Shown here one piece after another: positions 15,261-43,097 of a stretch of 64,000 bases of DNA. Every line of letters begins with the position of its first letter. Within the stretch, counting starts at the first letter, position 1. Source of the stretch: an uncultured Bacteriovoracaceae bacterium (GTDB taxonomy: Bacteria; Desulfobacterota; Desulfomonilia; UBA1062); the NCBI GenBank assembly GCA_964572405.1, contig CAZNGL010000002.1:1061-65060 (forward strand), written 5' to 3'. Both the position numbers and the translations under genes were made by a program. The notes beneath the pieces are model-generated. The model saw nothing but the letters and a program-made list of their open reading frames with translations. It had not been told where the DNA came from and searched no databases.

Positions 15261-15325
15261 GCCCCTGCCCCCAGAGAGGGGACCACTTAAATTTTCCACG
15301 TCATATGCCGATAGTGTGAAATGGT

Positions 15326-17047
15326 ATGGCTGTGAAGAACGAACCATGGCATGAGCGCTTTCTCGGCGAGACGCGGGAGCTCTACCATCAGAGGGTGCTC
15401 GCCATCCTCCTGATCGGCATCGTCCTGATCCCGCTCTTCAGCATCCTCGATTACGTGGTGGTGCGGCCCCACTTCCAGCTCTTCCTGCTCTACCGGCTGG
15501 GCTGCGCCTGCATCCTCACGGGCTTCCTCATCCTGTATTTCTCCCAGTGGGGCAGGGCGCTGGCGTACCCCATCTCCATCATCGCATACCTCATCTCGGG
15601 TGCCACCATCACGCTCATGTGCGTGAAGATGGGGGGGTACGACTCGTTCTACTACGTGGGGGTCGTCATGGTCCTGGTGGCGGTCCTGGTCATCCTGCCG
15701 CTGAATGCACTGCAGGGGGCGGTCCTCGGGGTGGTGCTCTACATCGTCTATGCGGTTCCCATCGTGCTTCTTTCCCGGCATACGCCGGAAAACCTGAACG
15801 TCTTCTTCAGCAACAGCTTCTTCTTCGCGTTCTTCATCGTCATCGCCGTGCTGAAGTGCTTCGAGGACACGAGGGCCCGCAAGCGCGAGGTGAAGCTCAA
15901 GAGCGAGATGGATGCCCTGGCGGAACGGCTTTCGTACTATGCACACAATCTCGAGTCAGACGTGGAGAAGCGGGTGAAGCAGCTCGAGGAGTCCGAGCTG
16001 CGGTACCGGGAACTCTACGAGAACATCATCGACATCGTGCTCCTCGTGGACAGAGACTCCCGGATCCTCATGGCCAACCCCCGGTTCTACGAGTTCATCG
16101 GCTCCGCCGACGAGAAGGCCCACACCAATTTCCTGAGCCTGGTGCATCCCTCACAGATGAGCCTGGTGGAGCGCATGATCATCCGGCTCCCCGTGGAGCA
16201 GACCGTGAAGGACCTCCAGTTCAAGATCGTGAACCGGCAGGGCAGGGTGTTCGACGTGGAGTGCAACGCCAAGTGCATCATGAAGGAATACCAGATCGTG
16301 GGGTTCCAGCTCGTGATCCGCGACATCACCGTGCGCAAGCGCCTGGAGAAGGACCTCCTCGAGTCCTACAAGAAGGTGCAGAGCGCCCGGAACGCCACCA
16401 TCCTCGGGCTCGCCAAACTCGCCGAGTACCGGGACGCCGACACGGGCGCCCACCTGGAGCGGATCAGGGAGTACAGCAAGGTGGTGGCCGAGGAACTCGC
16501 CCAGCACAGCGAGTACGCGGGCTACATCACCGCCGACTACATCGAGGACATCTACAATTCCTCCATTCTCCATGACATCGGCAAGGTGGGCATCCCGGAC
16601 GCCATCCTCCTGAAGCCGGGGCGGCTCAATCCCGATGAGTTCGAGGTGGTCAAGCGCCACTCGGCCCTGGGGGGCGAGGCCCTCAAGGAGGTGGAGGCGA
16701 AGATCGAAGGCCAGTCCTTCCTGACGCTCGGCAAGGAGATCGCCTACTACCACCACGAGAAGTGGGACGGGACGGGCTACCCCAGGGGTCTCAAGGGCGA
16801 GCAGATACCCCTGTCGGCCAGGATCGTGGCCCTGGCCGACGTGTACGATGCGCTCACCTCCAAGCGTGTCTACAAGGACGCGTACTCCCACGAGGACGCG
16901 AAGAAGATCATCGTGGAGAGCCGCGGCACCCATTTCGCCCCCGACGTGGTGGACGCGTTCATCAAACACGAGCACACCTTCCGCAGGATCAGGGAAGAAC
17001 TCTTCAAGGACCAGGAACTTCCGGAACACCGCTATTCGGCTGGATGA
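15326..17047 (+). CDS. Membrane-anchored (7TM-type) PAS-domain HD-GYP c-di-GMP phosphodiesterase
   Basis: N-terminal multi-helix hydrophobic region and a PAS-like middle. HD-GYP signature ILHDIGKVGIPD ... YHHEKWDGTGYPRGL. Confidence 0.8.
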   Translation: MAVKNEPWHERFLGETRELYHQRVLAILLIGIVLIPLFSILDYVVVRPHFQLFLLYRLGCACILTGFLILYFSQWGRALAYPISIIAYLISGATITLMCVKMGGYDSFYYVGVVMVLVAVLVILPLNALQGAVLGVVLYIVYAVPIVLLSRHTPENLNVFFSNSFFFAFFIVIAVLKCFEDTRARKREVKLKSEMDALAERLSYYAHNLESDVEKRVKQLEESELRYRELYENIIDIVLLVDRDSRILMANPRFYEFIGSADEKAHTNFLSLVHPSQMSLVERMIIRLPVEQTVKDLQFKIVNRQGRVFDVECNAKCIMKEYQIVGFQLVIRDITVRKRLEKDLLESYKKVQSARNATILGLAKLAEYRDADTGAHLERIREYSKVVAEELAQHSEYAGYITADYIEDIYNSSILHDIGKVGIPDAILLKPGRLNPDEFEVVKRHSALGGEALKEVEAKIEGQSFLTLGKEIAYYHHEKWDGTGYPRGLKGEQIPLSARIVALADVYDALTSKRVYKDAYSHEDAKKIIVESRGTHFAPDVVDAFIKHEHTFRRIREELFKDQELPEHRYSAG

Positions 17048-17696: not shown

Positions 17697-18133
17697 CTCT
17701 TACCTCCAGCCTTTATGACGGCGATCTCGTCCAGGAAGTTCATCTCGTGCTTCCTCTCGATCTCGTCATACCGGGCCTGGTGGATCTCCCTGAGCCGCAT
17801 GATCCCCTTGTGGGCACGTTTCGCCTTCAGGAGTGCTTCACGTTTCTCGTCCACCAAGCGCCCTGCCTTTTCTATGTTCTCGTCGATGCGCGCGATGCCT
17901 TCCTCCAGATGATGGAGGTATGTGTAGTACTGCCGCACCTCTTCCGATGTGACGCCGCCCTGCATCCTGGTCATGAGCTCCGCCCTGAGCACCTCCTTGC
18001 GGATCATGACCTGCTCCCTCATGGCCACGAGCGTGCTCATCTGGCGCTGGGCCTGGGACAGGGCCTGCTGCGCCAGGTTTTCCTGGATCCTCCGCACGTT
18101 CAAAAGGATGGCGAACCTGAACCGGAAGGCCAT
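17693..18133 (-). CDS. fliJ: Flagellar export chaperone FliJ
   Basis: 146-aa coiled-coil protein directly downstream of fliI in conserved order. Confidence 0.65.
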   Translation of the reverse strand: MAFRFRFAILLNVRRIQENLAQQALSQAQRQMSTLVAMREQVMIRKEVLRAELMTRMQGGVTSEEVRQYYTYLHHLEEGIARIDENIEKAGRLVDEKREALLKAKRAHKGIMRLREIHQARYDEIERKHEMNFLDEIAVIKAGGKR

Positions 18134-18134
18134 G

Positions 18135-19466
18135 TCACGCCTTTCCCGCGTTCTTCGCGGCCGTGATGGCGTTCATCTGGGCCACGGACTCCTCGATGGT
18201 GGCCTTCTCGTTGATGCCCTGCCTCAGGAACCGGGTGATGGCATCGTGGTGGCGGATCGCCGTGTCGATCTCGGGGTTGTTCCCCGCCACGTAGGCGCCG
18301 ATGTTGATGAGGTCGCGTGCCTCCTCGTACACCGCCGACAGGGACAGGATGTCCCTTGCCGACTTCAAGTGCTTTTCATCCACGATGTCGTTCATGACCC
18401 TGCTCACGCTCCTGAGGATGTCGACGGCCGGGTAGTGGGCCCTGGAGGCCAGCTCCCGGGAGAGCACGATGTGTCCGTCCACGATGGACCTCACCGTGTC
18501 TGCCACGGGCTCGGTCATGTCGTCGCCCTCCACGAGCACCGTGTAGAGGCCGGTGATGCTCCCCTTGGACGCGGTGTTGCCGACGCGTTCCAGCAGTTTG
18601 GGCATCTTGGCGAAGCACGACGGGGTATAGCCCTTGGTGGTGGGGGGCTCTCCCACGGCCAGCCCGATCTCCCGCATGGACATGGCGAACCGGGTGATGG
18701 AGTCCATCATGAGGAGGACGTCCTTGCCCTGGTCGCGGAAGTACTCCGCAATGGCCGTGGCGAGGTACGCCCCCCGGATGCGGATCAGGGAGGGCTGGTC
18801 GGATACGGCCGCGACCACCACGGACCGCTTGAGGCCCTCATCGCCCAGGTCCCGCTCCAGGAATTCCTTGACCTCCCTGCCGCGCTCGCCGATGAGCGCG
18901 ATGACGTTCACGTCGGCCTTGGTGTGGCGTGCCATCATGCCCAGGAGCACGCTCTTGCCGACGCCGGAGCCCGCCATGATGGCCATGCGCTGGCCCTTGC
19001 CCACGGTCAGCAGGCCGTTGATGGCCTTGATGCCGAGGTCCAGGGGCGTATCGATGCGCCTCTTCTTCAGGGGGTTGTAGGGGTTGCCGTAGAGCGGCAT
19101 CTCCTGGTCCAGCACCAGCGGTCCCTTGCCGTCCAGGGGTTCGCCCATGCCGTCGATGACCCTGCCCAGCATGTCGCCGCCCACCTTGACCGTGGGCTGC
19201 GATTTCCGGGCGATGATCATGCTGCCCGGCCCGATGCCGCTCAGGTCGCCCAGCGGCATGAGGAGGACCCGCTTGTCGCGGAACCCCACCACCTCCGCCA
19301 TGATGGACTCCCTGCGGGACCGCGAGAATATCTCGCACATGCCGCCCATGGCGCTGCCCGGGCCGTGCCCCTCCACCACCAGGCCCACGATGTTGGTGAC
19401 CTTGCCGCGGACCAGGATGGGGTCCTGCTCCCTGAGCGCCAGGATCTGTCGTCGCAGGTCGATCAT
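18135..19466 (-). CDS. fliI: Flagellum-specific ATP synthase FliI
   Basis: Walker A GSGVGKS, Walker B LLMMDS, T3SS-ATPase family. Start set at MIDLRRQ (ATGA overlap with the fliH stop). The longer 522-aa ORF is an artefact. Confidence 0.9.
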   Translation of the reverse strand: MIDLRRQILALREQDPILVRGKVTNIVGLVVEGHGPGSAMGGMCEIFSRSRRESIMAEVVGFRDKRVLLMPLGDLSGIGPGSMIIARKSQPTVKVGGDMLGRVIDGMGEPLDGKGPLVLDQEMPLYGNPYNPLKKRRIDTPLDLGIKAINGLLTVGKGQRMAIMAGSGVGKSVLLGMMARHTKADVNVIALIGERGREVKEFLERDLGDEGLKRSVVVAAVSDQPSLIRIRGAYLATAIAEYFRDQGKDVLLMMDSITRFAMSMREIGLAVGEPPTTKGYTPSCFAKMPKLLERVGNTASKGSITGLYTVLVEGDDMTEPVADTVRSIVDGHIVLSRELASRAHYPAVDILRSVSRVMNDIVDEKHLKSARDILSLSAVYEEARDLINIGAYVAGNNPEIDTAIRHHDAITRFLRQGINEKATIEESVAQMNAITAAKNAGKA

Positions 19467-20107
19467 TTCTCCAGCACGGCCTCTCTCAGGTGCTCTATCT
19501 GCGAGCGGATGCTCGCATCGATCTCGCCGAACTCGGTGTCGATGATCACACCCCCGCGGTCCAGGGTGGTGTCCTCCACGAAATGCAGGGTGCGCTTGCC
19601 GGTGAGGTGGGTGGACAGGATTCGCTCGATGTCGCGCATGTACTCGAAGTCCGAGGGGTGGAGCCGGATGCGGATCTCCTCGGTCTCGGACAGGTGGGTG
19701 CATGCCTGCCTCACCGTGTCAAGGACGATGTCCGGGGACAGGTTGATCTCGCGGTGGATGATGCGCTCGGCGATGAGGAACAGGATCTCCAGGATCTGGT
19801 CCTGGTGCTTCTCCACGATGAGCTGCCTGATCTTCTTCACTTCCTCCACGGCCTTCGTGAGCGTCTGGAACAGGGGCTCGATCCGCTTGACCGCCATCTT
19901 CTGGCCCTGGGCCTGACCCTGCTCCAGGCCCTTGCGGTAGGCCTCCATCTCGATGGCCTCCTTCTCGGCCCGCGCCCTCTTGAGGATGGCCTCGGCCTGG
20001 GCCTGGGTGTCCTTGAGGCTGGCCTTGGCCTGCATCTCCCTGGCCTTGTACGGGGTGACGCTGGCGTCCCGCGGGTCGCCGCCCCGGATGATCTTAGACG
20101 AGGACAT
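19463..20107 (-). CDS. fliH: Flagellar assembly protein FliH
   Basis: 214 aa with charged coiled-coil N-terminus. Position between fliG and fliI. Confidence 0.7.
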   Translation of the reverse strand: MSSSKIIRGGDPRDASVTPYKAREMQAKASLKDTQAQAEAILKRARAEKEAIEMEAYRKGLEQGQAQGQKMAVKRIEPLFQTLTKAVEEVKKIRQLIVEKHQDQILEILFLIAERIIHREINLSPDIVLDTVRQACTHLSETEEIRIRLHPSDFEYMRDIERILSTHLTGKRTLHFVEDTTLDRGGVIIDTEFGEIDASIRSQIEHLREAVLEK

Positions 20108-21113
20108 CTTCCCCGCCCTTTCCGCCGATGACGATCTTGCCGGCCGCCTCGAGCTTGCGCGCCACGCGCACGATGTTCTGCTGGGCGTTCTCCACGTCCG
20201 AGAGCTTCACCGGGCCCATGGTCTCCATATCCTCCAGGAGCATCTCGGATGCACGCGAAGACATGTTCTTGAGGATGTGGTTCTTGAGCGTCTCGCTGGA
20301 GGTCTTGAGCGCCAGGGAGAGGTCCTCGTTGGTGATCTCCTTGAGGATGGTCTGGATGCCGCGGTTGTCGATGTTGATCAGGTCCTCGAAGACGAACATC
20401 TTCTGGCGGATGGTTTCCGCCAGGTCGGCGTCGATCTCCTCCAGCGAGGCGAAGATGTTGTTCTCGGTATTGTGGTCGAGCTGGTTCATGATCTCGGCAA
20501 CGGTCTCGACGCCGCCGAGTTTCTTGCTCTCCACGCTGCCCATCGCCTCGATCTCCTTCTTGAGCACCTCGTCCACGTCCTCTATGACCCCGGAGGGGAC
20601 CATGCCGAGGTTCGCGATGCGGAAGACGATCTCGTGCTGGAGCTTTTCAGGCATCTCCTTGATGATCTGGGCGACCTTCTGGTGGTCGAGGTGGGCCAGC
20701 ACCAGGGCGATGGTCTGGGGGTGCTCGCCCTTGAGGTAGTCCACCAGGATGGACGGGTCGATGGAACGCAGCGACGAGAAGGCCGCCGTGTCCATGGCCA
20801 GGGAGATGGAGTCCAGGATAGGTTTGGCCTTGTCCTGGCCCAAGGCCGACACGAGGGCATCGCGCAGGTAGGTGATGCCCTTGCCGGTGACGCCGCTCAC
20901 CTCGCCGGAGAGCTGCTCGAATTCGTCCATGATGGTGCGGACCGTGTCCACCGGGATGGTCACGTCCTCGAGGGCTGCCATGCGCCTGCCGAGCAGCATC
21001 ATTTCGTGCTCGGTGAGGCCCTTGAAAATGGCCTGGGTGAAGTCGTCTCCCATTGCCATGAGAAAGATCGCGGCCTTCTGCGGGCCGTCAACCCTCTTGA
21101 GTTTTCCCATCAT
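20094..21113 (-). CDS. fliG: Flagellar motor switch protein FliG
   Basis: 339 aa. FliG N/middle/C domains. Conserved synteny. Confidence 0.85.
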   Translation of the reverse strand: MMGKLKRVDGPQKAAIFLMAMGDDFTQAIFKGLTEHEMMLLGRRMAALEDVTIPVDTVRTIMDEFEQLSGEVSGVTGKGITYLRDALVSALGQDKAKPILDSISLAMDTAAFSSLRSIDPSILVDYLKGEHPQTIALVLAHLDHQKVAQIIKEMPEKLQHEIVFRIANLGMVPSGVIEDVDEVLKKEIEAMGSVESKKLGGVETVAEIMNQLDHNTENNIFASLEEIDADLAETIRQKMFVFEDLINIDNRGIQTILKEITNEDLSLALKTSSETLKNHILKNMSSRASEMLLEDMETMGPVKLSDVENAQQNIVRVARKLEAAGKIVIGGKGGEDVLV

Positions 21114-22729
21114 GCATTCTCCTGCAGCCAGGATTTCACCACCGCCGTGGCGGTGTTCATGTCATTCTTCGTGATGTGCTCGATGGTCTTGCGCTTGCCC
21201 TGCACGGCCCGCTTCATCTCGTCGCTCTTGGCCACGGCCTCGATCTGCGGAATCTCCTCGCCGCCTTCCAGCAGCTCGCGGTCCTCTGCCGGAATCCCCC
21301 GCTCATGGACGTGGACGCGCTCCACCACCCGGCCGGACCTGGTGGTGAGCCACTTGAGCAGCGGCCGTATGACCAGGAAGAGCACCAGCAGGATCGCGAG
21401 GAAGGCGAGCGTGTACTTCACCAGGGTCATGATGAGCTCCCGGTTCTTTTCCAGGGTGGACATGGCGGCGACGTCGGTGTCGTCCTGGGCGAACGGCATG
21501 CAGGACACCGAGATGAGGTCTTCCCGGTCCGCGTTGAACCCCACCGCGTTCTTCACCGCGTTCTCGATCTCCCTGAGCTCGGAGGCCTGCCGGGCCACGA
21601 ACAGCTTGTTGCCGTCCTTGTCGGTCTTGTACGTCCCGTCCACCACCACGGACACCGTCAATTTCTTGACTTCGCCCGGGGAGTAGATGCGTTCCGTCTG
21701 GTTCCTGCCGATCTCGTAGTTCCGCACGATGGACCCGGCGCCCGCGGCATCCTGGCCCGGGACCGCCTCGGGGCCGCCCCTGCCCGTGGGGAGGTTCGAC
21801 GGCGTGCCCGCGGCGCCCTGGGTGTCACCCCGGGCCGCTGCATACTGGTTCTTGAGCTCCTCGGAACGCACCACGTGGATCTCGGGGTCGTACATGTCCT
21901 GGACGCTCTTGACCATGTCCATGTTCACGTCAGCGCTCACCTTCACCACGGCGGCGTTCGGACCCACGATCTTTTCCAGGAGGTCCTCGGAGCGTTCCTG
22001 CAGCTGGTGCTCGATGGCCCTCTTGAACTCGAGGCGGTCGCTGGCCATGGTGACCGAGTCGGAGTCCTTCTTCCCCTCGTAGAGGACCCTTCCCCTGATG
22101 TCCACGATGCTGATGTTCTCGGGATCGAGCCCCCGGATGCTCTTCTCCACCAGGTACACGATGCCCTGTACCCGGGAGGGACCCATCTGCATGCCGGGCT
22201 TTGCCCGGATGACGATGGATGCCTTGGCGGGCTTCTCGTCCTCGATGAAGATGCTCTCCTTGGGCATGGCGATGTGGACCCGTGCGAACTCGACCTCTTC
22301 CAGGGACATGATAGTGTTGGCCAGCTCGTTCTGCAGGGCCCGCTGGTAGTTGATCTTCTGCACGAACTCGGAGGTGGCGAATCCGGTCTCGTCGAACAGC
22401 GCGAAGCCCTTGTCCGTGCCCCCCTTGGGGATGCCCTCGGCGGCCAGCGTCAGGCGCGTCTCGTAGACGTTCTCCTCAGGGATCATGACGGCGGTCCCGC
22501 CCTTGGTGAGGCGGTAGGGGATGCGGTCGTCCTTGAGGCGCTGCACCACCAGGGACGCGTCCTGCTCGTTCAGGTTCGTGAACAGGTACTGGTACTTCGG
22601 CGCGGTGGCCCACATGATGCTCACCGCGATGACCGCAAGGGCCATGGCGCTCACGGCCACGAGGCCGATCCGCTGGCCCATGCTCATGGCGGTGAATTTG
22701 GCCGGAAGCTGTTTTACGAGGTTCATCAT
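21110..22729 (-). CDS. fliF: Flagellar M-ring protein FliF
   Basis: 539 aa. N- and C-terminal TM helices. ATGA overlap with fliG. Confidence 0.85.
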   Translation of the reverse strand: MMNLVKQLPAKFTAMSMGQRIGLVAVSAMALAVIAVSIMWATAPKYQYLFTNLNEQDASLVVQRLKDDRIPYRLTKGGTAVMIPEENVYETRLTLAAEGIPKGGTDKGFALFDETGFATSEFVQKINYQRALQNELANTIMSLEEVEFARVHIAMPKESIFIEDEKPAKASIVIRAKPGMQMGPSRVQGIVYLVEKSIRGLDPENISIVDIRGRVLYEGKKDSDSVTMASDRLEFKRAIEHQLQERSEDLLEKIVGPNAAVVKVSADVNMDMVKSVQDMYDPEIHVVRSEELKNQYAAARGDTQGAAGTPSNLPTGRGGPEAVPGQDAAGAGSIVRNYEIGRNQTERIYSPGEVKKLTVSVVVDGTYKTDKDGNKLFVARQASELREIENAVKNAVGFNADREDLISVSCMPFAQDDTDVAAMSTLEKNRELIMTLVKYTLAFLAILLVLFLVIRPLLKWLTTRSGRVVERVHVHERGIPAEDRELLEGGEEIPQIEAVAKSDEMKRAVQGKRKTIEHITKNDMNTATAVVKSWLQENA

Positions 22730-22731
22730 GG

Positions 22732-23022
22732 CTAGCTCAACCTCTTCAGCTCGTTGAAGCCTTCAATGAGCTTGTTGGTCATGGTCACCATGAGGCGCAG
22801 CGTGATATCGGTCTTCTGCATGGCGATCATGGCCTCGTGGATGCTCGGTGCCCTGCCGGACGAGAGGTCTGTTGCCATCTGCTCGGACTCCTTTGCCTGT
22901 CGGTTGACGGAGTCGATGGCTTCCCTCAGGGTTTCCATGAACGTTCCGCCCTTTCCGGAGGGCTTGTCCTTGGCAGGGGTGAACGGACCGGTCAGGGTGA
23001 AATCAGGCTTGTCGATGCGCAT
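22732..23022 (-). CDS. fliE: Flagellar hook-basal body protein FliE
   Basis: 96 aa. Synteny flgB-flgC-fliE-fliF. Confidence 0.75.
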   Translation of the reverse strand: MRIDKPDFTLTGPFTPAKDKPSGKGGTFMETLREAIDSVNRQAKESEQMATDLSSGRAPSIHEAMIAMQKTDITLRLMVTMTNKLIEGFNELKRLS

Positions 23023-23024
23023 GA

Positions 23025-23426
23025 CTACCTCCCGATCTGCAGCGCCTTGAGCGCCATGTCCTTCTGTGATTTCACGGCGATGGAGTTCGCCTCGAAGGCC
23101 CTGGCTGCGTTCATCATGTTCACCATCTCCTCCATGAGGTTCACGTTGGGCATGGTGACATAGCCCTGTTCGTCCGCGTCAGGGTTGCCCGGGTCGTAAA
23201 TGCGCTCCCCCGGGGTGGTGTTCACGGCGATCTCCTGAACATCCACGCTCGAAAGGGCATCCTTGAAGGACCGTTCCCGCAGGATCACGTCCCTGCGCTG
23301 GTAGGGACCGCCTTCGGGGGTCCTGGTGGTGCGGGCGTTCGCGATGTTGCTGGAAATGACGTTCATCCTGGTGCGCTGGGCCCTCAGGCCGCTCGCGCTG
23401 ATGTCCATGGCGGTGAAAAGGTCCAT
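23025..23426 (-). CDS. flgC: Flagellar basal-body rod protein FlgC
   Basis: 133 aa. N-terminal SNIANANT-like rod motif (SSNIANARTTRTPEGGPYQRR). Confidence 0.85.
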   Translation of the reverse strand: MDLFTAMDISASGLRAQRTRMNVISSNIANARTTRTPEGGPYQRRDVILRERSFKDALSSVDVQEIAVNTTPGERIYDPGNPDADEQGYVTMPNVNLMEEMVNMMNAARAFEANSIAVKSQKDMALKALQIGR

Positions 23427-23809
23427 TACCTGATACCTCCTATCACGTTCCTGAGCCCCTCGAACTTTCTGGTGAGGATTTCCGCCGAAGCATTGTACAG
23501 GAGCTGGTTCTGGCTGAGCTTCATCATCTCCCGGTCGATATCCACGGTGTTGGCGTCGTTCCCGATGCGGGAGTATGGGTCGACCACGGTCCTGTACAGG
23601 GGCCTGCCCGGCGACTCCTTCATGTGGGCGGTGTCGGTGACGGTCATCTTCAGCCGGGAATCCAGCTCCTTCTCGAACGTGGCCTCCCTGGCCTTGTAGC
23701 CGGGAGTGTCCGCATTGGCGATGTTGCTGGAGATGACCTCCTGGCGATAGGTCCGGTACGTCATGTGATCCGTCACTTCCGGGATGATCTTTCCGAAGAT
23801 GTCGCCCAT
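23426..23809 (-). CDS. flgB: Flagellar basal-body rod protein FlgB
   Basis: Start placed at the second ATG (MGDIFG) because an AGGAGAGAGG RBS precedes it. SSNIANADTPGYKA rod motif. Confidence 0.8.
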   Translation of the reverse strand: MGDIFGKIIPEVTDHMTYRTYRQEVISSNIANADTPGYKAREATFEKELDSRLKMTVTDTAHMKESPGRPLYRTVVDPYSRIGNDANTVDIDREMMKLSQNQLLYNASAEILTRKFEGLRNVIGGIR

Positions 23810-23833
23810 ATCCTCTCTCCTCATGCCATTGAA

Positions 23834-23849
23834 AGCAATTGTCGTACCA
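23834..23849 (-). promoter_or_regulatory. Sigma-54 (-24/-12) promoter for the flgB operon
   Basis: Minus-strand TGGTACGACAATTGCT matches TGGCACG-N4-TTGCW with GG and GC correctly spaced. It lies about 25 nt upstream of the flgB ATG and downstream of a sigma-54 activator gene. Confidence 0.5.
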
Positions 23850-23870
23850 AGGGTGCGTACGGGAAAAGTG

Positions 23871-25214
23871 CTAGGAATCTTCAGGGTTGCAGCCTGCGGG
23901 GTCCCCGGGGAAATCGTCAGAAATTTGACCTCCCCTGGTGTATTCGTTGAGCTTGTTCCGCAGGGTCCTGATGCTGATGCCCAGGAGTGTGGCGGCCTTG
24001 GTCCTGTTGCCGGCCACCTTTTGAAGGGTCGAGTATATCAGGCGTTTTTCCATGTCGTGGATGGTGGTTCCCGCTTCGGGCAGGGCTAGGGCATCCCCCA
24101 TGGACATGCCGTCCACATGGACGTGCTCCGGCGAGATGGTGTCCCCCTCGGTGAGGATCATGGCCCGCTCGATGACGTTCTCCATTTCCCGTACATTGCC
24201 CGGCCAGGAATACTTCAGGAGGGCATCTTTTGCCTGTGTGCTGAGCACTTTTTCCGGCATGCCCTCGCGGGCGGCGATCTTCCTGACAAAATGGGTCGCC
24301 AGCGGCAGGATGTCGTCCCTGCGGTCCCTCAAAGGGGGCACCGTGATGGGTATGACGTTCAGGCGGTAGAACAGGTCGTTCCGGAACCGGCCCGCCTTGA
24401 TTTCTGATGCGATGTCGCGGTTGGTGGTGGAGATAACCCGGAAATCCACCTTGACGGGGATCTTCCCCCCCACGCGGTCGATCTGGCGTTCCTGGAGGAC
24501 CCTGAGCAGCTTGGCCTGCAGAGCGTACCCGATCTCGGTAACCTCGTCCAGCAGGATGGTGCCGCCGTCGGCCTGTTCGAACCTGCCCACCCTTGTCGCA
24601 TAGGCCCCGGTGAACGCCCCCTTCTCGTACCCGAAGAGCTCGCTTTCCAGGAGCGTCTCGGGGATGGCGGCCAGGTTGATCCCCACGTAGGGGCCTGTCC
24701 GCCTCCTGCTCAGCGCATGGATGGTCCGCGCGATGACCTCCTTGCCCGTGCCCGATTCCCCCATGATGAGCACCGGCGCCTGGGTGGGGGCGACCTTGCG
24801 GATGACCTCCATGATCCGCCCCATGGCGGCATCCGCCACCACGAAGGGGGTCTCTGCCTGAGCCTGCCGGGCCTGCCCGGGTGTGCCCAGGGCCTGGATG
24901 ACCTGGACGATCTCCTCGGCCCTGAAGGGCTTGCGCAGGAAGTGCGAGGCGCCGGCCTTCAGGCACGCAGAGCCGTCGGACGCGCCGATGGCGATGATCT
25001 CGATGGTGTCGTAGACCTGCTTGGTCCCCTCCACCACGTCGACGAATTCGTCGGAGATGATGGCGATGGAGTGCTGCCCGGGGTTGATGACCTCGAGGAA
25101 CTTGTCCTTGCTGGTGTACGGACAGGGGGACTCGCCGGTCTCTGCGATGAGTTCGGCCAGGAGGTTGGCGGTTTCCTTGTCAGTGTCCAGGATGGCGATA
25201 CCCATGGCGCTCAC
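23871..25214 (-). CDS. Sigma-54-dependent transcriptional activator with atypical N-terminal receiver-like domain (FleQ/FlrA-like flagellar master regulator)
   Basis: AAA+ sigma-54 interaction domain ([15 protein letters not shown], the arginine-finger region). C-terminal Fis-type HTH. N-terminal domain lacks the canonical DD...D...K receiver signature. GTG/ATG start at 25214/25205 abutting the TPR gene stop. Confidence 0.8.
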   Translation of the reverse strand: MSAMGIAILDTDKETANLLAELIAETGESPCPYTSKDKFLEVINPGQHSIAIISDEFVDVVEGTKQVYDTIEIIAIGASDGSACLKAGASHFLRKPFRAEEIVQVIQALGTPGQARQAQAETPFVVADAAMGRIMEVIRKVAPTQAPVLIMGESGTGKEVIARTIHALSRRRTGPYVGINLAAIPETLLESELFGYEKGAFTGAYATRVGRFEQADGGTILLDEVTEIGYALQAKLLRVLQERQIDRVGGKIPVKVDFRVISTTNRDIASEIKAGRFRNDLFYRLNVIPITVPPLRDRRDDILPLATHFVRKIAAREGMPEKVLSTQAKDALLKYSWPGNVREMENVIERAMILTEGDTISPEHVHVDGMSMGDALALPEAGTTIHDMEKRLIYSTLQKVAGNRTKAATLLGISIRTLRNKLNEYTRGGQISDDFPGDPAGCNPEDS

Positions 25215-37720: not shown

Positions 37721-38266
37721 ATGGCGACACGGGAGATCATCGAATCACTCATCTTCTCTGCAAGCGGGGCCGTGGCCGTCAAGGACATCCTGCGGATCGT
37801 GCCGGGCACCTCGGCCGAGGAGGTCGACCGGCTCGTGGAGGAGCTCAACGGCCTGTATGAATCCGGCCATCGGAGTTTCCGGATACACCGGGCAGGCCCT
37901 GGATACCTGTTCGTGACGCAGCCCGAGTACGCTTCCTATATCCGGCAGCTGGTGAGCCCGGTGAGGCTCACTGCGGCAGCCCTGGAGGTGCTCGCCGTGG
38001 TGGCCTACAAGGGGCCGTGCTCCAAGCAGACCATCGACGGCATCCGCGGCGTGGACTCCACCTCGAGCCTCAAGCAGCTCGTCAGGCACCAGCTCGTGGA
38101 CATCAGGCCGGGAAAGCCCATGATGTACGCCACCACCGGCAAGTTCCTCGAGGTGTTCGGGCTCACATCCCTGTCCGAGCTGCCCGACATCGCGCAGTTC
38201 GAGGAGGTCTTCGGCATGCCGGAGATCGCTGAAGGCGCTTTCCCGCCAGAGGCGGAAGATGCGTGA
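37721..38266 (+). CDS. scpB: Segregation and condensation protein B
   Basis: Winged-helix repeats (IIESLIFSASGAV ... VLAVVAYKGPCSKQTIDGIRGV). 181 aa. Confidence 0.8.
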   Translation: MATREIIESLIFSASGAVAVKDILRIVPGTSAEEVDRLVEELNGLYESGHRSFRIHRAGPGYLFVTQPEYASYIRQLVSPVRLTAAALEVLAVVAYKGPCSKQTIDGIRGVDSTSSLKQLVRHQLVDIRPGKPMMYATTGKFLEVFGLTSLSELPDIAQFEEVFGMPEIAEGAFPPEAEDA

Positions 38267-39733
38267 CTACGAGGGCATCTCTGAAGGCTTGACGATGTTG
38301 AGGAAGAGGTTCACGCCCTCGGGTTCCTTTTCCACCACCACGTGCGGGTTGCCCGGAAGATCCGAGGCGAGACGTTTCAGTTCGTCCTCGCTGCGGTGGA
38401 TGAGGAACCACTCGGCGCCGTACTCCATGATGAACCGCTGGGGGTTGTAGATCCCGAAGTTGCCGATGATCAGCATCCCCCCGGGCCGCAGGAAGCTGTA
38501 GAGCTTGTGGATGAGGCGGCTGGAAGCTCGGTCGGAAAGGTAATCGAAGAGCCCGGCCGTGTAGATGAGGTCGGCGTTTTCGTAGAGGGTTTTCCCGGAT
38601 CCCCGCTCCACGATGAGCCGCTTGATGTTGTCCTGCTCGAAGTGCACCCTGACCTTCGGATTGTCCCTGACGGCCGGCTCTATCCTCGCGCGGGCGTCCT
38701 CCAGGGCGAGGCTGTCCTGGTCCAGGGCGATGAAGTCGATGACGGTGGAAAGCGGCGCCCCCTCCATGGCCTTGATGAAGTCCACGAACTCGAGGGCCGG
38801 TCCGCAGGCCACGCTCATGATCCTGATGCCGGGGCGAGGCGGGTTGCCCGGGACCAGTTCCCTGAGCTTCCTGAAGAGGTAGGTCCTGCGGTTTCTCACC
38901 GCTCGGGACGCGGTGCCCTCGCAATCGACCTTGTTCAGGACCTGGGCGAAGAGCGAATCTCCCTCGTAGGCGTTCCGGTAGATGATGTTCATCATCTCAT
39001 AGTCGCCGGCATACCCCAGCGGCTTGGTGATGCTCCGGTTGAACAGACAGGACTTGGTGAGGTACTCGTTCAGGCGCTTCTGGAAGAACTCCCGGTGGAT
39101 GAAATGCTGCTTGGGATCGGTGAACCGGCTGGTGATGCCGGAGAAGTGGTCGTAGTAGCGGTTCATCTCGTCGAACAGCGCATCGAAGGCAAGGGTCCGC
39201 AGGGTTTCCAGCAGGGCCTCACGGAGCCCCTCGTCCTCTATCAGGATGCGATCGAGGTCCTGGTCGAGCCGTTTGGCGAAGCCCTCCAGGATGTAGTGCA
39301 GGTGCGAGGTGAGGTTGACGAACTCGGGGTCGAGGCTTTCCTCGATGGCCATGGACTGGACGAAGTCGAGGAAGTCGTTCTGGAGCTTGGTGACCTTGTC
39401 CGCCTTCACCACGGCATAGACGTCCATGGAGCGGTCCAGGTACGAGCAACCGACACAGGAGAGGACCGTGCCGTCCTTCTCCTCGTCCTGGATGTGGATG
39501 ATGGTGGCGCCGGAACTGTGCACCTCGTGACCGGCCGAGAGGAATCTCAGATCCGCGATGACATCGCCGATGTGCAGGATGAGGCTCCCGTCCTCGAGGT
39601 AGAAGGAAACCCCTGTTCGGGAATAATCCTTGACCCGGCACGTGTGCTCGGTCTTCTGGAAATCGCGGAAGCGTACCACCTTGTCGGTGTCATTCTCATC
39701 GACGGCGTATCGCAGGTCACGGTTGAGTCGCAC
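38267..39733 (-). CDS. Fusion protein: N-terminal PilZ-like domain + C-terminal class I SAM-dependent methyltransferase
   Basis: GTG start with GAGGAGAG RBS. N-terminus MRLNRDLRY...DYSRTGVSFYLEDGS (DxSxxG plus beta-rich segment). C-terminus has MTase motif I IMSVACGPALEF, an acidic post-I residue (IALDQD), motif II LIYTAGLFDYL and motif III LRPGGMLIIGNF. Confidence 0.6.
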   Translation of the reverse strand: MRLNRDLRYAVDENDTDKVVRFRDFQKTEHTCRVKDYSRTGVSFYLEDGSLILHIGDVIADLRFLSAGHEVHSSGATIIHIQDEEKDGTVLSCVGCSYLDRSMDVYAVVKADKVTKLQNDFLDFVQSMAIEESLDPEFVNLTSHLHYILEGFAKRLDQDLDRILIEDEGLREALLETLRTLAFDALFDEMNRYYDHFSGITSRFTDPKQHFIHREFFQKRLNEYLTKSCLFNRSITKPLGYAGDYEMMNIIYRNAYEGDSLFAQVLNKVDCEGTASRAVRNRRTYLFRKLRELVPGNPPRPGIRIMSVACGPALEFVDFIKAMEGAPLSTVIDFIALDQDSLALEDARARIEPAVRDNPKVRVHFEQDNIKRLIVERGSGKTLYENADLIYTAGLFDYLSDRASSRLIHKLYSFLRPGGMLIIGNFGIYNPQRFIMEYGAEWFLIHRSEDELKRLASDLPGNPHVVVEKEPEGVNLFLNIVKPSEMPS

Positions 39734-39874
39734 GGATCTCTCCTCTTCAAAGAATACAGGGGATGCACGGAATCTCCCGCCTCACGATCATACCATACGG
39801 CATGAGGACCGGAAATCTTTAATTCTTTCCGGGCTTCGGAAGGCGTTTGCGCCCGGGAGCCGGACAGGGCCGTG

Positions 39875-40366
39875 CTAGGACTGTGCGCACTCGCTCATGT
39901 CTCCGCCGAGCTTGTCCAGGGCATGGGGCAGGGCTGGGAGAACCGCCTCCAGGCATTCTTTGGCCGCCTTGGGGCTTCCGGGGAGGTTGATGATGAGGGT
40001 GCGCCCCCGCGCGCCCACCACGGCCCGGGAGATCATGGCATGGGGGGTCTTCTTCAAGCTCTCCGCGCGCATCACCTCCTCCATGCCGGGCACGCGCCTG
40101 TCGATGACGGACAGGGTGGCCTCGGGGGTGACGTCGCGGGGAGACAGGCCGGTGCCGCCGGTGGTGACAACGAGGTCGAGGCCGATCTCGTCGGACCAGG
40201 CACAGAGTCGTTCCCTGATGAGGTCGAGGTCGTCCGGGATGACCTGCATCGTTTCCACGTGGATGCCCCGGCCGGAGAGGATCTCCGAGATGATGGGGCC
40301 GCTCGCGTCCTGGCGCTGACCCGACGCGCCCTTGTCGGAGAGGGTGAGGATACCCGCCTTCTTCAT
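39875..40366 (-). CDS. Molybdenum cofactor biosynthesis protein MogA/MoaB (molybdopterin adenylyltransferase family)
   Basis: 163 aa from MKKAGILTLSDKG. VVTTGGTGLSPRD motif. Upstream ORF extension rejected. Confidence 0.75.
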   Translation of the reverse strand: MKKAGILTLSDKGASGQRQDASGPIISEILSGRGIHVETMQVIPDDLDLIRERLCAWSDEIGLDLVVTTGGTGLSPRDVTPEATLSVIDRRVPGMEEVMRAESLKKTPHAMISRAVVGARGRTLIINLPGSPKAAKECLEAVLPALPHALDKLGGDMSECAQS

Positions 40367-40797
40367 CGCTTCACCGTCTTGAGCCTGCTCTCGGCCGCGA
40401 TGACAAGGGGGCGCGGGACGCCCTTGCTCTTCGCCAGCAGTCCCAAGTCCCGCTGGTTCAGGTAGGTGACCTGGGCCATGGCAATGGTCAGGGGGGTCTT
40501 GGGGTTGTTCACCAGGGCGAGCCTGACCTGGTAGTTTCTCAGCCATTCCCGGTTCATCCCGATCTCCCTGAGCACGTCCTCGGTCACCTGCCGGTTGGCA
40601 GCTATGGCTATGATCTCGCTCTCGGTGATCTTGGGGGAGTTCACCACGGCGAGCTGGACGAGCTTGTTGGAATCCCGCATGAGGATGGTGCGGGCCTCCT
40701 TGGAGGCCTTGCGCGCCAGATCGAGTTTCTCGGAGACCGTCATGGTCTGTATCTTCTGATACAGGCTGGCGACGTTGTCTGGCCCGTTATTTTCCAT
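40363..40797 (-). CDS. Hypothetical protein with leucine-rich-repeat-variant/HEAT-like repeats (LAxxNxPKxP)
   Basis: 144 aa. Repeated LAVVNSPKIT / LALVNNPKTP units. ATGA overlap with mogA and 11-nt overlap with the EF-G gene. Confidence 0.4.
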   Translation of the reverse strand: MENNGPDNVASLYQKIQTMTVSEKLDLARKASKEARTILMRDSNKLVQLAVVNSPKITESEIIAIAANRQVTEDVLREIGMNREWLRNYQVRLALVNNPKTPLTIAMAQVTYLNQRDLGLLAKSKGVPRPLVIAAESRLKTVKR

Positions 40798-42871
40798 CCT
40801 TTGCTGCCTTCGCCTCCTCGACGATCTTCTCCTGGAGGTTGTACGGCACCGGGTCCATGTGCGAGAAGCTCAGGGTGAAGGTTCCCCGTCCCGAGGTGAT
40901 GGAGGTGAGGCTGGCCGCGTAGGTGAGGACCTCGGCCAGGGGGATCTGGGCCTTGAGTTCCTGGTACTTGCCCCTCGAGTTCATGCCCTCGATCTTGGCC
41001 CTGCGGCTGTTGAGGTCTCCCATGACGTCTCCCATGCACTCCTCGGGCACGGTGACCGTGATGTTCATGATGGGCTCCAGCAGGATGGGTCTGCACTGCT
41101 CCATGGCCTTCTTGAAGGCGAGTGACCCGGCGATCTTGAAGGCCATTTCCGAGGAGTCCACCTCGTGGTACGAGCCGAAGTACACGGTGACCTTGATGTC
41201 CACCACGGGGTTGCCCGAAAGCGGTCCCGACTGCATGGCCTCGTGCACGCCCTTCTCGATGGCCGGGATGTACTGCTTGGGGATGACGCCGCCCACGATG
41301 GCGTTCACGAACTCGAAGCCCTTGCCGCGCTCCAGGGGTTCCACCCTGAGCCAGCAGTCACCGAACTGCCCGTGGCCGCCGGTCTGCTTCTTGTGCTTGC
41401 CCTGCACCTCGGCCATGGCGGTGATGGTCTCCTTGTACGGGACCCTGGGGGTCTTGAGGTCCACCTCGACGCCGAACCTCCTCTTGAGCCTGTCCACGGC
41501 GATCTCGATGTGGAGCTGGCCCAGGCCCGACAGGATGAACTCGCCCGTCTGCTCGTCGCGGTACACCTTGAGGACCGGGTCCTCGTCCATGATCTTCTGG
41601 AACGAGGGCATGATCTTCTCCACGTCCGCCTTGGTCTTCGGGGTCACGGCCATGTTCATGATGGTGTCGGGGAATACCGGGCTCGGCAGCGTGAAGGCCA
41701 CGGACTCGGAGAGCAAAGTGTCGCCGGTCTTGGTTTCCTTGAGCTTGGCCACGGCGAAGATGTCTCCGGGCCCCACGAGCTCCACGGGCTTCTGTGCCTT
41801 GCCTTCCAGCATGAGGAGCGAACCGATCCTCTCCTTGGTCTCCCGGGTGGCGTTGAAGACGCTCGAATCGGGGCTCAGGGTGCCGGACAGGCAGCGGATG
41901 ATGCTCAGCGTCCCGGTGTACGGGTCGCTCATGGTCTTGAACACGTAACCGCAGAAAGGCTGGTCCTCAAGGGGCTTGTACTCCCTGGTTTCGCCCTTGG
42001 CGTTCTTCAGGGTCGGTATGGTGCGCTTGTCCGGGTTGATGAACGAGGACGCCATGAAGTCCATGAGCGGCTGCACGCCCATGTTCAGCAATGCGGATCC
42101 GCAGAACACGGGCAGGAACAGGCCCTTCGCGAGCCCTGCGGACAGGGCGCCGTCGAGCTCTGCCGGGGAGAGCTCTCCGCCCTCCAGGTACTTCTCCATC
42201 AGCGCGTCGTCCACCTCGGCGAGATCCTCGACGACCTTGCCGTAGACCTCCTCCAGCTGGTCAGCCATGTCGGCGGGGATGGGGGCCTCCTTGAAGGATC
42301 CCGAACCGTCCTTCTCGTAGAGGTAAGCCTTCTTCCTGAACACGTCCACCACGCCGGCAAACCTCTCCTCTGCGCCGATGGGAAGCGTCAGGGGCAGCGG
42401 CTTGATCTCGAAGATCTCCGCGATGTCCTTGAGGACCTGGCCGAAGTTGGCTCGTTCGCGGTCCATCTTGTTGATGAAGCAGGTGCGGGTGAGACCTTCG
42501 GTGCCGGCGAGCCTCCAGAGATTCTCCGAATAGGGCTTGATGGAGTCGATGGCATCGATGACGAACAGGGCGTTGTCGGCGGACTTCAGGCCGAGGATGG
42601 CCTCCGAGGTGAAGTTGGTGTCTCCGGGGGTGTCCAGCATGATGATCCCGGTGTTCTTCCACTTGAAGTTATGCAGTGCGCTGAAGATGGATGACTGCCG
42701 TTTGATCTCCTCGGGCTCGAAGTCAAGGACCGAGTTGCCGTCGAGTACCTTGCCGAGGCGCGTGGTGGCCTTGGCATTGAACAGGAATGCCTCGCCCAGC
42801 GATGTCTTTCCGGAACCGGACTGAGACATGATGATGACATCTTTCAAGTTTTCCGAACGAAATTTCCGCAT
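40787..42871 (-). CDS. Elongation factor G paralog (EF-G2-like translational GTPase)
   Basis: 694 aa. GTPase G1 SQSGSGKTS, G3 DTPG. EF-G domains II-V. AAGGGGAGGA RBS. Start chosen at MRKFRSENLKDVII. Confidence 0.85.
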   Translation of the reverse strand: MRKFRSENLKDVIIMSQSGSGKTSLGEAFLFNAKATTRLGKVLDGNSVLDFEPEEIKRQSSIFSALHNFKWKNTGIIMLDTPGDTNFTSEAILGLKSADNALFVIDAIDSIKPYSENLWRLAGTEGLTRTCFINKMDRERANFGQVLKDIAEIFEIKPLPLTLPIGAEERFAGVVDVFRKKAYLYEKDGSGSFKEAPIPADMADQLEEVYGKVVEDLAEVDDALMEKYLEGGELSPAELDGALSAGLAKGLFLPVFCGSALLNMGVQPLMDFMASSFINPDKRTIPTLKNAKGETREYKPLEDQPFCGYVFKTMSDPYTGTLSIIRCLSGTLSPDSSVFNATRETKERIGSLLMLEGKAQKPVELVGPGDIFAVAKLKETKTGDTLLSESVAFTLPSPVFPDTIMNMAVTPKTKADVEKIMPSFQKIMDEDPVLKVYRDEQTGEFILSGLGQLHIEIAVDRLKRRFGVEVDLKTPRVPYKETITAMAEVQGKHKKQTGGHGQFGDCWLRVEPLERGKGFEFVNAIVGGVIPKQYIPAIEKGVHEAMQSGPLSGNPVVDIKVTVYFGSYHEVDSSEMAFKIAGSLAFKKAMEQCRPILLEPIMNITVTVPEECMGDVMGDLNSRRAKIEGMNSRGKYQELKAQIPLAEVLTYAASLTSITSGRGTFTLSFSHMDPVPYNLQEKIVEEAKAAKDGK

Positions 42872-43097
42872 CGATCCTCCCCTTAAGCCAAATCTAGAGT
42901 TAAGGCTTTTAACTGAAAAGGGCACGATAAGTCAAGGAGCGGCTTCCATGGCCCTGAAAACCCTGTTGCCGGCACTGAAGGGTTGCAAAGGCCTCCTCTC
43001 CTGCAGTACTCTCCGTCGCAGGGTGCTATTCCGGCCCATGGCATGCATGGCGCCATCGGGGCCGTACATGCAGGGGAATTCGTTTCGGAGATACTCC

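Follow-up and report, generated by a model that had tools for sequence, protein, structure and literature searches.

What does a protein do that appears to join a PilZ-like barrel to a methyltransferase? The question is raised by a single gene in the window, by which we mean the whole 64,000-nucleotide stretch of DNA that was analysed. An earlier note, made from the letters of that DNA, put forward the hypothesis that the protein is a c-di-GMP-gated methyltransferase and, as such, a new type of output. The features around this gene on which our answer draws are as follows (all on the minus strand).

38267..39733, minus strand: coding sequence of a 488-aa protein with PilZ, helical and methyltransferase parts, assigned to the PhcB family (ORF list, sequence, full-length orthologues)
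39740..39745, minus strand: Shine-Dalgarno sequence GAGGAG, 6 nt 5' of the GTG (sequence reading)
39422..39733, minus strand: predicted PilZ domain (residues 1-104), made up of a loop at the N-terminus and a six-stranded beta-barrel (AF2 secondary structure, Foldseek, Pfam, profile search)
39710..39721, minus strand: R5-D-L-R8, arginine motif of the N-terminal loop (alignment column counts, MrkH alignment)
39611..39628, minus strand: D36-Y-S38-R-T-G41, the [D/N]hSxxG motif of PilZ (alignment column counts)
38849..39421, minus strand: all-helical middle region, residues 105-295 (AF2 model with pLDDT ~90; conserved with PhcB)
38999..39025, minus strand: family signature K237-P-L-G-Y-A-G-D-Y245 ((nearly) invariant alignment columns)
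38270..38848, minus strand: class I (Rossmann) SAM methyltransferase domain, residues 296-488
39796..39821, minus strand: sigma28/FliA-like motif TAAAGATT-N12-GCCGTATG, the -10 part given as GCCGTA (orthologue conservation)

Judged by its sequence and its relatives, the gene is real and conserved. The GTG (cac on the plus strand, 39731-39733) is the first start codon past an in-frame stop, and with GAGGAG just ahead of it the start and ribosome-binding site proposed earlier for this 488-aa reading frame stand; the stop codon is at 38267-38269. The protein has more than 1180 database matches, and its orthologues, 48-94% identical, align over the full length. All 16 orthologous loci share the same synteny, in which genes for an EF-G-like protein, a 144-aa protein and a MoCF_biosynth protein are followed by the PilZ-methyltransferase gene and by convergent scpB-scpA-trpS, scpB being the downstream neighbour in the window. 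The intergenic gap between mogA and the PilZ-methyltransferase gene spans 77-290 nt. No NCBIfam model fits the 488-aa protein or true PhcB, and an Rfam scan of 38000-40200 gave nothing useful.

The N-terminal ~104 residues are predicted to have a PilZ fold. AF2 modelled the full-length protein with a pLDDT of 90 and the N-domain with one of 87, placing six strands (18-23, 29-37, 41-47, 58-66, 69-86 and 89-98) ahead of a helix at 105-133. When this N-domain was compared with the PDB by Foldseek, the best 30 matches were all PilZ domains (query-normalised TM 0.42-0.67), including those of YcgR, MrkH, PlzA, Alg44 and BcsA, and a profile search matched the PilZ domains of MrkH, VCA0042 and BcsA in the PDB. 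Searched against PDB sequences as sole query, the 488-aa protein returned weak methyltransferase matches only. The Pfam PilZ model (PF07238) gives 20.0 bits on the full protein (E=9e-4), under the 22.5-bit gathering cut-off, and 23.3 bits, over it, on the N-terminal 128 aa alone; across the family it matches 29 of 37 N-domains, at best with 3e-11. Because the N-domain is modelled as a PilZ barrel, a non-PilZ fold, on which the c-di-GMP proposal would founder, is not what the prediction gave, and the barrel suspected in the earlier note is upheld.

If the fold is that of PilZ, are the ligand-binding residues there? The protein shares with the PilZ domains of YcgR, MrkH, PlzD/VCA0042, Alg44 and BcsA the six-stranded barrel, its C-terminal helix and the [D/N]hSxxG motif, and it resembles the canonical receptors in having an Arg-rich N-terminal loop ~28 residues before that motif. 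The distance from R8 to D36 is 28 residues, which we take to be the same as in YcgR and MrkH. Residues 2-8 read RLNRDLR and residues 36-44 DYSRTGVSF, as had been noticed at the outset, and the reservation made then about an inexact RxxxR spacing was warranted: an exact RxxxR is absent from the protein, which has N4-R5-D-L-R8 instead. In the alignment to RRRDPRF of MrkH, position 4, an Asn, lies opposite the first Arg of RxxxR and R8 opposite the last. The arginine motif of the family as a whole is RxxR, position 4 being K, R, N, S, A or E in orthologues. The Pfam PilZ alignments give no information on RxxxR, since for every member they begin only at position 16-21 of the profile and leave the arginine segment uncovered.

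The two arginines, R5 and R8, are invariant in 106 of the 106 aligned relatives having that segment. Among 114 aligned relatives, 113 carry D or N at position 36 and the remaining one a Glu; S38 is kept in all of them except one and G41 in all. We know of no PilZ domain with RxxR spacing that is a demonstrated c-di-GMP binder. The protein also differs from the canonical receptors in that its domain forms the N-terminus of an enzyme and that its c-di-GMP binding is putative. From these motifs, binding of c-di-GMP by the N-domain is plausible but, with RxxR in place of RxxxR throughout the family, unproven. For [D/N]hSxxG in PilZ we follow the definition in bioRxiv 10.1101/814665.

The protein as a whole falls into a known family. 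PhcB is the Ralstonia enzyme that makes the methyl 3-hydroxy-fatty-acid quorum-sensing signal, the family's characteristic products being methyl 3-hydroxymyristate or -palmitate. A BLASTP comparison with PhcB of R. pseudosolanacearum (P0445) gave E=4e-41 and 27% identity over residues 14-477. Both proteins follow the same order from end to end, with the same three-part layout, KPLGYAGDY and the class I methyltransferase motifs, and hhalign matched the N-domains of the 488-aa protein family and of PhcB with a probability of 90%. JGI labels many homologues with the PhcB KO (K19620-type), and some NCBI records of relatives are already named 'PilZ domain-containing protein'. On sequence grounds, we assign the 488-aa protein to the PhcB signal synthase family as a full-length member. 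The fusion of PilZ and methyltransferase seen in the earlier note is correct as an architecture and is not isolated: it is common in the PhcB family, which is large.

Within this family the N-domain takes two forms. In about half of the relatives it carries the invariant RxxR...[D/N]xSxxG, and the barrel of the 488-aa protein retains R5, R8, D36, S38 and G41, i.e., all the invariants of the motif-bearing half. In true PhcB and in the Verrucomicrobiota members both motifs are degenerate and there is no Pfam PilZ match; in true PhcB the arginine segment is missing, and NLQRKS stands in place of DYSRTG. The alignments indicate that the PilZ N-domain is ancestral to the PhcB family and degenerate in true PhcB. 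Both of these groups function although their N-domain is motif-less, so the domain has some c-di-GMP-independent role. Within the library searched, literature on PilZ-methyltransferase fusions, on PhcB with PilZ or c-di-GMP and on PhcB homologues in other phyla yielded no earlier description.

The PilZ C-terminal helix (105-133) opens the helical middle, and further helices start at residue 136 in the AF2 model; we read these as an active-site lid. Aligned with PhcB of Ralstonia and of Paraburkholderia, the protein shows no difference along KPLGYAGDY. In the catalytic domain, motif I is SVACGPALE, and ALDQD, LIYTAGLFDYLSD and LRPGGMLIIGN are also conserved. Pfam found Methyltransf_12/25 in the full protein (E=1e-4 to 4e-4), which together with the AF2 model bears out the C-terminal class I SAM-dependent methyltransferase of the earlier note. 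It also found CheR at E=0.013; PF01739 reached 15.3 bits against a 27-bit cut-off and CheR_N had no match in the 488-aa protein, and many homologues give faint or weak CheR matches. By sequence, the catalytic domain finds its best match in the PDB in B. subtilis CheR (E=3.9e-8), and the match to 5ftw is confined to the Rossmann core. The nearest solved structure to the methyltransferase is 3ocj ('possible exported protein' of Bordetella parapertussis), an uncharacterised protein without PilZ domain that is 18-19% identical and was missed by the sequence profile search.

If the protein makes a signal, the signal needs a receiver. The phcBS(R)Q operon has been described (PMC10653808), and relatives of the 488-aa protein share its synthase-then-sensor gene order: a large same-strand ORF starts between -80 and +151 nt from the stop in 61 of 71 non-orthologous species loci, and downstream ORFs often overlap the synthase gene by 4-8 nt. 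The gene of a Paraburkholderia homologue (E=4e-45) is followed by those of a kinase and two response regulators. The partners in relatives are hybrid kinases (TM-HisKA-HATPase-REC-HisKA-HATPase) or sensor-cyclases with one common sensor domain. The window departs from the phc operon in that no PhcS, PhcR or PhcQ adjoins the PilZ-methyltransferase gene, and a sensor gene was found in the flanks of none of the 16 orthologous loci of the window clade. In the phylogeny this clade is nested within the motif-bearing, sensor-linked clade.

A sensor gene is nevertheless present elsewhere in the window. We built an HMM of the sensor from domains encoded beside PhcB-like genes in 59 loci; it also finds a PhcS-like kinase absent from the model (E=2.5e-45). 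Its sole match in the window (110.5 bits, E=1.1e-33) is a protein encoded 21 kb from the PilZ-methyltransferase gene, which we propose as the partner and which has a promoter-like motif of its own.

15326..17047, plus strand: proposed partner, PhcS-type membrane sensor domain followed by PAS and HD-GYP (HMM, Pfam)
15288..15314, plus strand: sigma28-like motif TAAATTTT-N11-GCCGATAG, directly 5' of the HD-GYP gene

The sensor covers residues 10-211 of this protein, PAS 226-334 and HD-GYP 371-541 (HDIGK, HHEKWDGTGYP); Pfam found PAS and HD_5. A metagenome scan with it was dominated by the generic HD-GYP peptide, and the loci returned held no PhcB-like gene and one full-length orthologue (L089, on a 2.8-kb contig). 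The c-di-GMP proteins listed in the earlier note were recovered for the most part: besides this HD-GYP phosphodiesterase there is a GGDEF protein (7576-8604), and the FleQ-like regulator is a sigma54 activator without receiver domain (23871-25214) beside fliF/fliI, among the flagellar genes present in the window. A second PilZ protein did not turn up in a six-frame motif scan of the window, a non-exhaustive one. The N-terminus of FliI was rejected as a candidate, as its RxxR...DxSxxG is a chance string inside the ATP-synthase beta-barrel domain.

Both genes carry motifs of the sigma28 type, for which the pattern was a -35 TAAAG(TTT) and a -10 GCCGATAA with ~11 nt between. Upstream of the PilZ-methyltransferase gene the motif begins 85 nt before the start codon. 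The pattern recurs at -60 to -100 in 9 of 10 orthologous upstream regions and, as an independent test, in all six of the separately fetched orthologues and in L006 (shuffles average 0.2 of 6), which brings the total to 16 of 17 orthologous loci. It resembles the E. coli FliA promoters of PMC4183435 and the FliA-type elements -35 TAAAG / -10 GCCGATAA (PMC12784957), with a spacer 1 nt longer than in the FliA-type promoters of E. coli and P. aeruginosa. The motif of the HD-GYP gene is weaker evidence because there are just two sequences to compare: L089, the sole orthologue (68%), keeps the -10 element ATGCCGATAG at the same distance from the ATG. Across the window the pattern occurs twice where 2.0 occurrences are expected, and since there is no such enrichment the sigma28 argument rests on position and conservation. 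No fliA was located in the window, and a scan for sigma70 promoter and terminator consensus sequences gave nothing useful. The targets of FliA in E. coli include yhjH and the PilZ gene ycgR (PMC4183435).

We tentatively propose, at somewhat below an even chance, that in flagellated cells a c-di-GMP-gated signal synthase works together with a receptor that degrades c-di-GMP. The nucleotide would dock on the N-terminal loop and barrel of the 488-aa protein, and binding would turn the methyltransferase on or off, in whichever direction, via the PilZ C-terminal helix that leads straight into the helical lid. The enzyme would probably methyl-esterify the carboxylate of a small lipid-like molecule, and the PhcS-type membrane sensor fused to PAS and the HD-GYP phosphodiesterase would receive the product, a pairing of the two genes that we infer. 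Because the sensor domain is fused to HD-GYP, the product would make itself felt through altered c-di-GMP, which feeds back on the synthase, and because both genes have sigma28 (FliA)-type motifs, the loop would operate in flagellated cells under putative FliA control.

The barrel might instead have the PilZ fold and bind no c-di-GMP, serving all PhcB-family enzymes as a structural, dimerisation or substrate/partner-binding domain, with control by transcription only. This would suit the motif-less version of true PhcB and the Verrucomicrobiota clade, unrecognised by Pfam PilZ, the RxxR in place of RxxxR with its variable position 4 in orthologues, and the fact that many PilZ-related domains no longer bind (Galperin and Chou, bioRxiv 10.1101/814665). 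Yet R5, R8, G41, S38 and D/N36 are (near-)invariant in a motif-bearing clade that is otherwise ~30% identical, and the conserved positions are exactly those lost in the other clade, the pattern expected from selection on a ligand site; PilZ domains within fusion proteins, moreover, mostly still bind (bioRxiv 10.1101/814665). We regard a non-binding barrel as somewhat unlikely.

A gated enzyme could also have another substrate. MapZ-CheR1 of Pseudomonas aeruginosa sets a precedent, with PilZ c-di-GMP input onto a SAM methyltransferase of CheR-related fold, coupled by the PilZ C-terminal helix, and the window protein could be its cis-fused counterpart, a protein carboxyl methyltransferase akin to CheR that serves the motility apparatus and through which c-di-GMP controls methylation of chemoreceptors or a flagellar protein. 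The B. subtilis CheR match, the faint CheR matches of homologues, the sigma28-like promoter and the nearby flagellar genes all fit. The PilZ adaptor of MapZ-CheR1 acts in trans, whereas the window protein is one polypeptide, and its methyltransferase is of PhcB type whereas CheR1 is a chemoreceptor methylase. We consider this substrate improbable. Far less credible still is an orphan housekeeping methyltransferase, metabolic or translation-linked, with no signalling role and no relation to the HD-GYP protein. The gene order conserved in 16 of 16 orthologous loci would favour it, but the gap from mogA holds a conserved promoter-like motif of the gene's own, the neighbour genes have no evident tie to methyl transfer, and the clade descends from sensor-linked synthases.

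The signal synthase and receptor that we favour recall the DSF/Rpf system of Xanthomonas, in which RpfF is the synthase, RpfC the sensor kinase and RpfG an HD-GYP protein. Both would involve a diffusible lipid-type signal that, once perceived, leads in the end to c-di-GMP being hydrolysed by HD-GYP. In the window, by contrast, the sensor is fused straight to HD-GYP without a phosphorelay, and the synthase is a methyltransferase with a putative c-di-GMP receptor of its own where RpfF is a crotonase.

PhcB has long been studied as an enzyme of virulence quorum sensing, and these results suggest that its N-terminal third, so far unexplained, derives from a PilZ domain that has decayed. They further suggest that several phyla widely possess Phc-like modules of synthase and sensor, and that the sensor domain of PhcS is portable, being carried by kinases, cyclases and one HD-GYP enzyme. 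In its widest form the proposal is a one-step autoinducer / c-di-GMP loop together with Phc-type pairs that are common outside Betaproteobacteria, which taken whole we think unlikely. A PilZ-bearing PhcB-type synthase would sense c-di-GMP and make a diffusible methyl ester, and a PhcS-type sensor-HD-GYP would perceive the ester and alter c-di-GMP, feeding back on the synthase, under FliA control in swimming cells. Phc-type synthase-sensor pairs would then be common in Myxococcota, Bdellovibrionota, Verrucomicrobiota and Acidobacteriota, with about half of the synthases bearing an intact PilZ-like ligand site and the PhcS-type sensors acting through kinases, class III cyclases or HD-GYP. To our knowledge, c-di-GMP acting through PilZ has so far been seen to control motility, secretion, polysaccharide synthesis or transcription only. 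If it gated a cell-cell signal synthase directly, this output would be new and would tie the making of the signal to second-messenger state with no transcriptional step in between.

The gene studied here is real, with more than 1180 matching proteins in the databases. The 488-aa protein begins at a GTG, as the earlier note had read it. This is the first start past the in-frame stop, with GAGGAG 6 nt upstream; RLNRDLR stands at residues 2-8 and DYSRTG at residues 36-41. The gene (the target) and its conserved surroundings are the following.

38267-39733, reverse strand: target coding sequence, an ORF of 488 aa
39796-39821: sigma28-like motif 5' of the target, reading TAAAGATTTCCGGTCCTCATGCCGTA, an instance of a conserved pattern
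40363-40797, reverse strand: 144-aa protein at a conserved position, with no Pfam match
40787-42925, reverse strand: EF-G paralogue of 712 aa with all five EF-G domains

Searched whole against Pfam, the target matches PilZ at 20.0 bits, under the cut-off of 22.5, and Methyltransf_12/25 and CheR likewise only below threshold; NCBIfam gave no match. Its N-terminal 128 residues alone exceed the PilZ cut-off (23.3 bits), and Pfam PilZ matches 29 of 37 diverse N-domains of the family (best 3e-11). A PDB search with an N-domain profile retrieved the PilZ domains of MrkH, VCA0042/PlzD and BcsA. AlphaFold2 models built using the family alignment (pLDDT of 90 for the full-length protein, 87 for the N-domain) agree in fold: a loop precedes six strands, and a long helix starts at residue 105. 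When the N-domain was compared with the PDB by Foldseek, the top 30 matches were all PilZ domains, including those of YcgR, MrkH, PlzA, PP4397, Alg44, PA0012, VCA0042, BcsA and MotI (best E=1.8e-4; TM 0.42 to 0.67, normalised to the query). The N-domain thus has a PilZ fold, as the earlier note had suspected, and not the non-PilZ fold that would have refuted that reading. It is firmly supported that the target joins a PilZ-fold domain, a helical region and a class I methyltransferase in one protein.

The motifs of this domain were counted over an alignment of 115 relatives. R5, R8 and G41 never vary; S38 is missing from a single sequence, and a single one has neither D nor N at position 36. 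The first arginine of the MrkH RxxxR (RRRDPRF) aligns with position 4, which is variable (K in 33 orthologues, R in 29, N in 7, also S, A, T and E) and hydrophobic in distant relatives. This makes RxxR-(27)-[D/N]hSxxG the family signature, its arginine motif having one residue fewer than the canonical RxxxR. Since the target has all the invariant residues, its Asn4 is no special defect. The arginine segment lies outside every Pfam PilZ alignment of the family. The inexact RxxxR spacing that had been remarked upon is a family-wide trait and the DxSxxG motif stands (DYSRTG); judged from these residues, c-di-GMP binding is putative.

The identity of the enzyme emerges from its relatives. Many homologues bear the JGI name 'extracellular factor 3-hydroxypalmitic acid methyl ester biosynthesis protein'. 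A tblastn search against plasmids led to a gene of Paraburkholderia graminis; genes for a histidine kinase and two response regulators come after it, and its product aligns with target residues 13-481 (E=4e-45). With Cupriavidus as a bridge, we reached the protein that NCBI names PhcB in Ralstonia pseudosolanacearum; compared directly, it is 27% identical to the target over residues 14-477 (E=4e-41). Membership of the target in the PhcB family is firmly supported. The product of PhcB is methyl 3-hydroxymyristate or -palmitate, and phcB belongs to the phcBSRQ operon, which also codes for the sensor kinase PhcS, for PhcR with both receiver and kinase domains, and for PhcQ with a receiver domain (PMC10653808).

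In profile-profile comparison, the PilZ domain of the target and the first ~100 residues of betaproteobacterial PhcB prove homologous (probability 90%, E=1.6e-6); the PhcB region has NLQRKS in place of DYSRTG and lacks the arginine segment. Pfam PilZ matches neither these N-domains nor those of Verrucomicrobiota. From sequence comparison, true PhcB seems to have a decayed PilZ-type barrel as its N-terminal third. Such regions, with an hhalign probability of 90% to the target domain, span residues ~5-95 of R. pseudosolanacearum PhcB (P0445) and 5497-5880 of locus L081; the barrel of true PhcB is without both c-di-GMP motifs. The literature searched held no mention of it. Among the loci fetched, RxxR...[D/N]xSxxG occurs in 40 (Myxococcota, Bdellovibrionota, Acidobacteriota, others and the window clade) and neither motif in 38, chiefly Verrucomicrobiota. 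A neighbour-joining tree of the catalytic core sets a motif-less clade (Verrucomicrobiota and true PhcB) apart from the motif-bearing one, within which the window orthologues form a monophyletic subgroup. That the target carries a conserved, family-specific RxxR...[D/N]hSxxG signature, lost in true PhcB, is firmly supported.

We fetched 80 species-representative loci, 71 of them non-orthologous to the window gene. These 71 are arranged like phcBS: in 61 a large same-strand ORF has its start at -80 to +151 nt relative to the stop codon, and overlaps of 4-8 nt are frequent. This ORF has 677-938 aa in 50 loci, and the two inspected encode membrane sensor-HisKA-HATPase-REC-HisKA-HATPase, which is a PhcS-PhcR fusion; in one locus followed further, a receiver protein comes next. 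Eight others, of ~470-486 aa, share the N-terminal sensor region (L020, L028, L041, L044, L055, L059, L062 and L068, from Acidobacteriota, Oligoflexia, Bdellovibrionota and others). In the two inspected, L028 and L044, a class III adenylate/guanylate cyclase domain replaces the histidine kinase, so the PhcS-type sensor domain seems to be a portable module whose outputs include second messengers. Tight synthase-sensor pairing among the PhcB-like relatives is firmly supported.

The window clade has an invariant neighbourhood of its own: in all 16 loci an EF-G-like gene, the 144-aa protein and a MogA-like gene are followed by a gap of 77-290 nt, the target and convergent scpB-scpA-trpS, and no sensor gene was found in the flanks. 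The EF-G paralogue heading this string is probably a second, specialised copy. The gene of the 144-aa protein (51-79% identity in the first eight loci) overlaps both the EF-G-like and the MogA-like gene.

A candidate partner lies elsewhere in the window. An HMM built from the ~220-aa sensor regions of 59 downstream partners recognises a Paraburkholderia PhcS-like kinase absent from the model (E=2.5e-45) and matched exactly one of 363 window ORF segments: residues 10-211 of the 15326-17047 protein (110.5 bits, E=1.1e-33).

7576-8604, forward strand: GGDEF protein, outside the flagellar cluster
12877-14361, forward strand: AMP-binding (acyl/aryl-CoA ligase-type) enzyme
15288-15314: near-consensus sigma28-like motif TAAATTTT-N11-GCCGATAG, directly 5' of the sensor-HD-GYP gene
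15326-17047, forward strand: PhcS-type sensor (by the HMM) with PAS and HD-GYP domains
17136-25214: flagellar gene cluster, holding the next three
18135-19703, reverse strand: FliI
21110-22729, reverse strand: FliF
23871-25214, reverse strand: FleQ/FlrA-like sigma54 activator without a receiver domain

The protein has an N-terminal multi-pass membrane domain of ~200 aa, and the HDIGK and HHEKWDGTGYP motifs of its HD-GYP domain are intact. Pfam has no family for the sensor domain, with weak MASE8 similarity only, in PhcS-like proteins. One orthologue (68%, locus L089) has the same architecture. The existence of a PhcS-type sensor fused to HD-GYP in the target's window is firmly supported. The gene adjoins the fliF-fliI cluster with its sigma54 activator. 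The GGDEF protein, HD-GYP protein and FleQ-like regulator of the earlier note are all present; a non-exhaustive motif scan of the window found no second PilZ protein. The AMP-binding enzyme is encoded ~1 kb upstream on the same strand; a tie to a fatty-acid-derived signal would be purely speculative.

The upstream intergenic regions of the target orthologues are otherwise unalignable, and have in common TAAAG(A/T)(A/T)(A/T)-N12-GCCGAT. Nine of the first ten loci have TAA[AT]-N16-18-[CT]CG[AT][AT] between -62 and -86 (shuffles average 0.34). Fixed in advance and then sought in six newly fetched orthologues and in locus L006, the pattern was found in all; shuffles of the new orthologue set average 0.2, and 0 of 5000 reached 6. 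A conserved promoter-like motif upstream of the target is firmly supported. It resembles E. coli FliA sites, among them those of flgMN (TAAAGATTACCCGTCCCTTGCCGATAAA) and flxA (PMC4183435), and, with one more spacer base, P. aeruginosa fliC (-35 TAAAG, -10 GCCGATAA; PMC12784957). The FliA targets of E. coli include yhjH and the PilZ gene ycgR (PMC4183435), so a PilZ gene in a FliA regulon has precedent. L089 keeps the -10 element of the 15288-15314 motif and its distance to the ATG. Over the whole window, matches to the pattern are no more numerous than in shuffled sequence, and no fliA gene was located there.

A new circuit around the target is plausible. In it, c-di-GMP would bind the N-domain and control catalysis, the enzyme would form the methyl ester of a small carboxylate, the HD-GYP protein would be the receptor for that ester, and both genes would depend on FliA. 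According to the main rival, the barrel lost c-di-GMP binding, or never had any, and does something else, as must be the case in true PhcB. A CheR-like role in methylating proteins is less likely, since the target lacks the CheR N-domain and its full-length kinship is to PhcB.

The fusion is common, and some NCBI records of the family are already labelled 'PilZ domain-containing protein'; as a sequence object it is not new. Among the database matches of the target, about 90 full-length orthologues (48-94% identity) come from Desulfomonilia, 'Deltaproteobacteria' or Syntrophia-type metagenome genomes. HMMER, run exhaustively over 1.84 billion cluster representatives, matched 2964 clusters at E<=1e-10, of which 624 reach E<=1e-30; eight of the matched proteins (P0241-P0245, P0248, P0250 and P0257; 590-800 aa) have 120-320 extra residues before the PilZ-like domain. 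In the literature searched we found no paper on a PilZ-methyltransferase fusion, on a PilZ-like domain in PhcB or on c-di-GMP control of PhcB-type enzymes. What the target would combine are two known kinds of protein, a PhcB synthase and a PilZ receptor.
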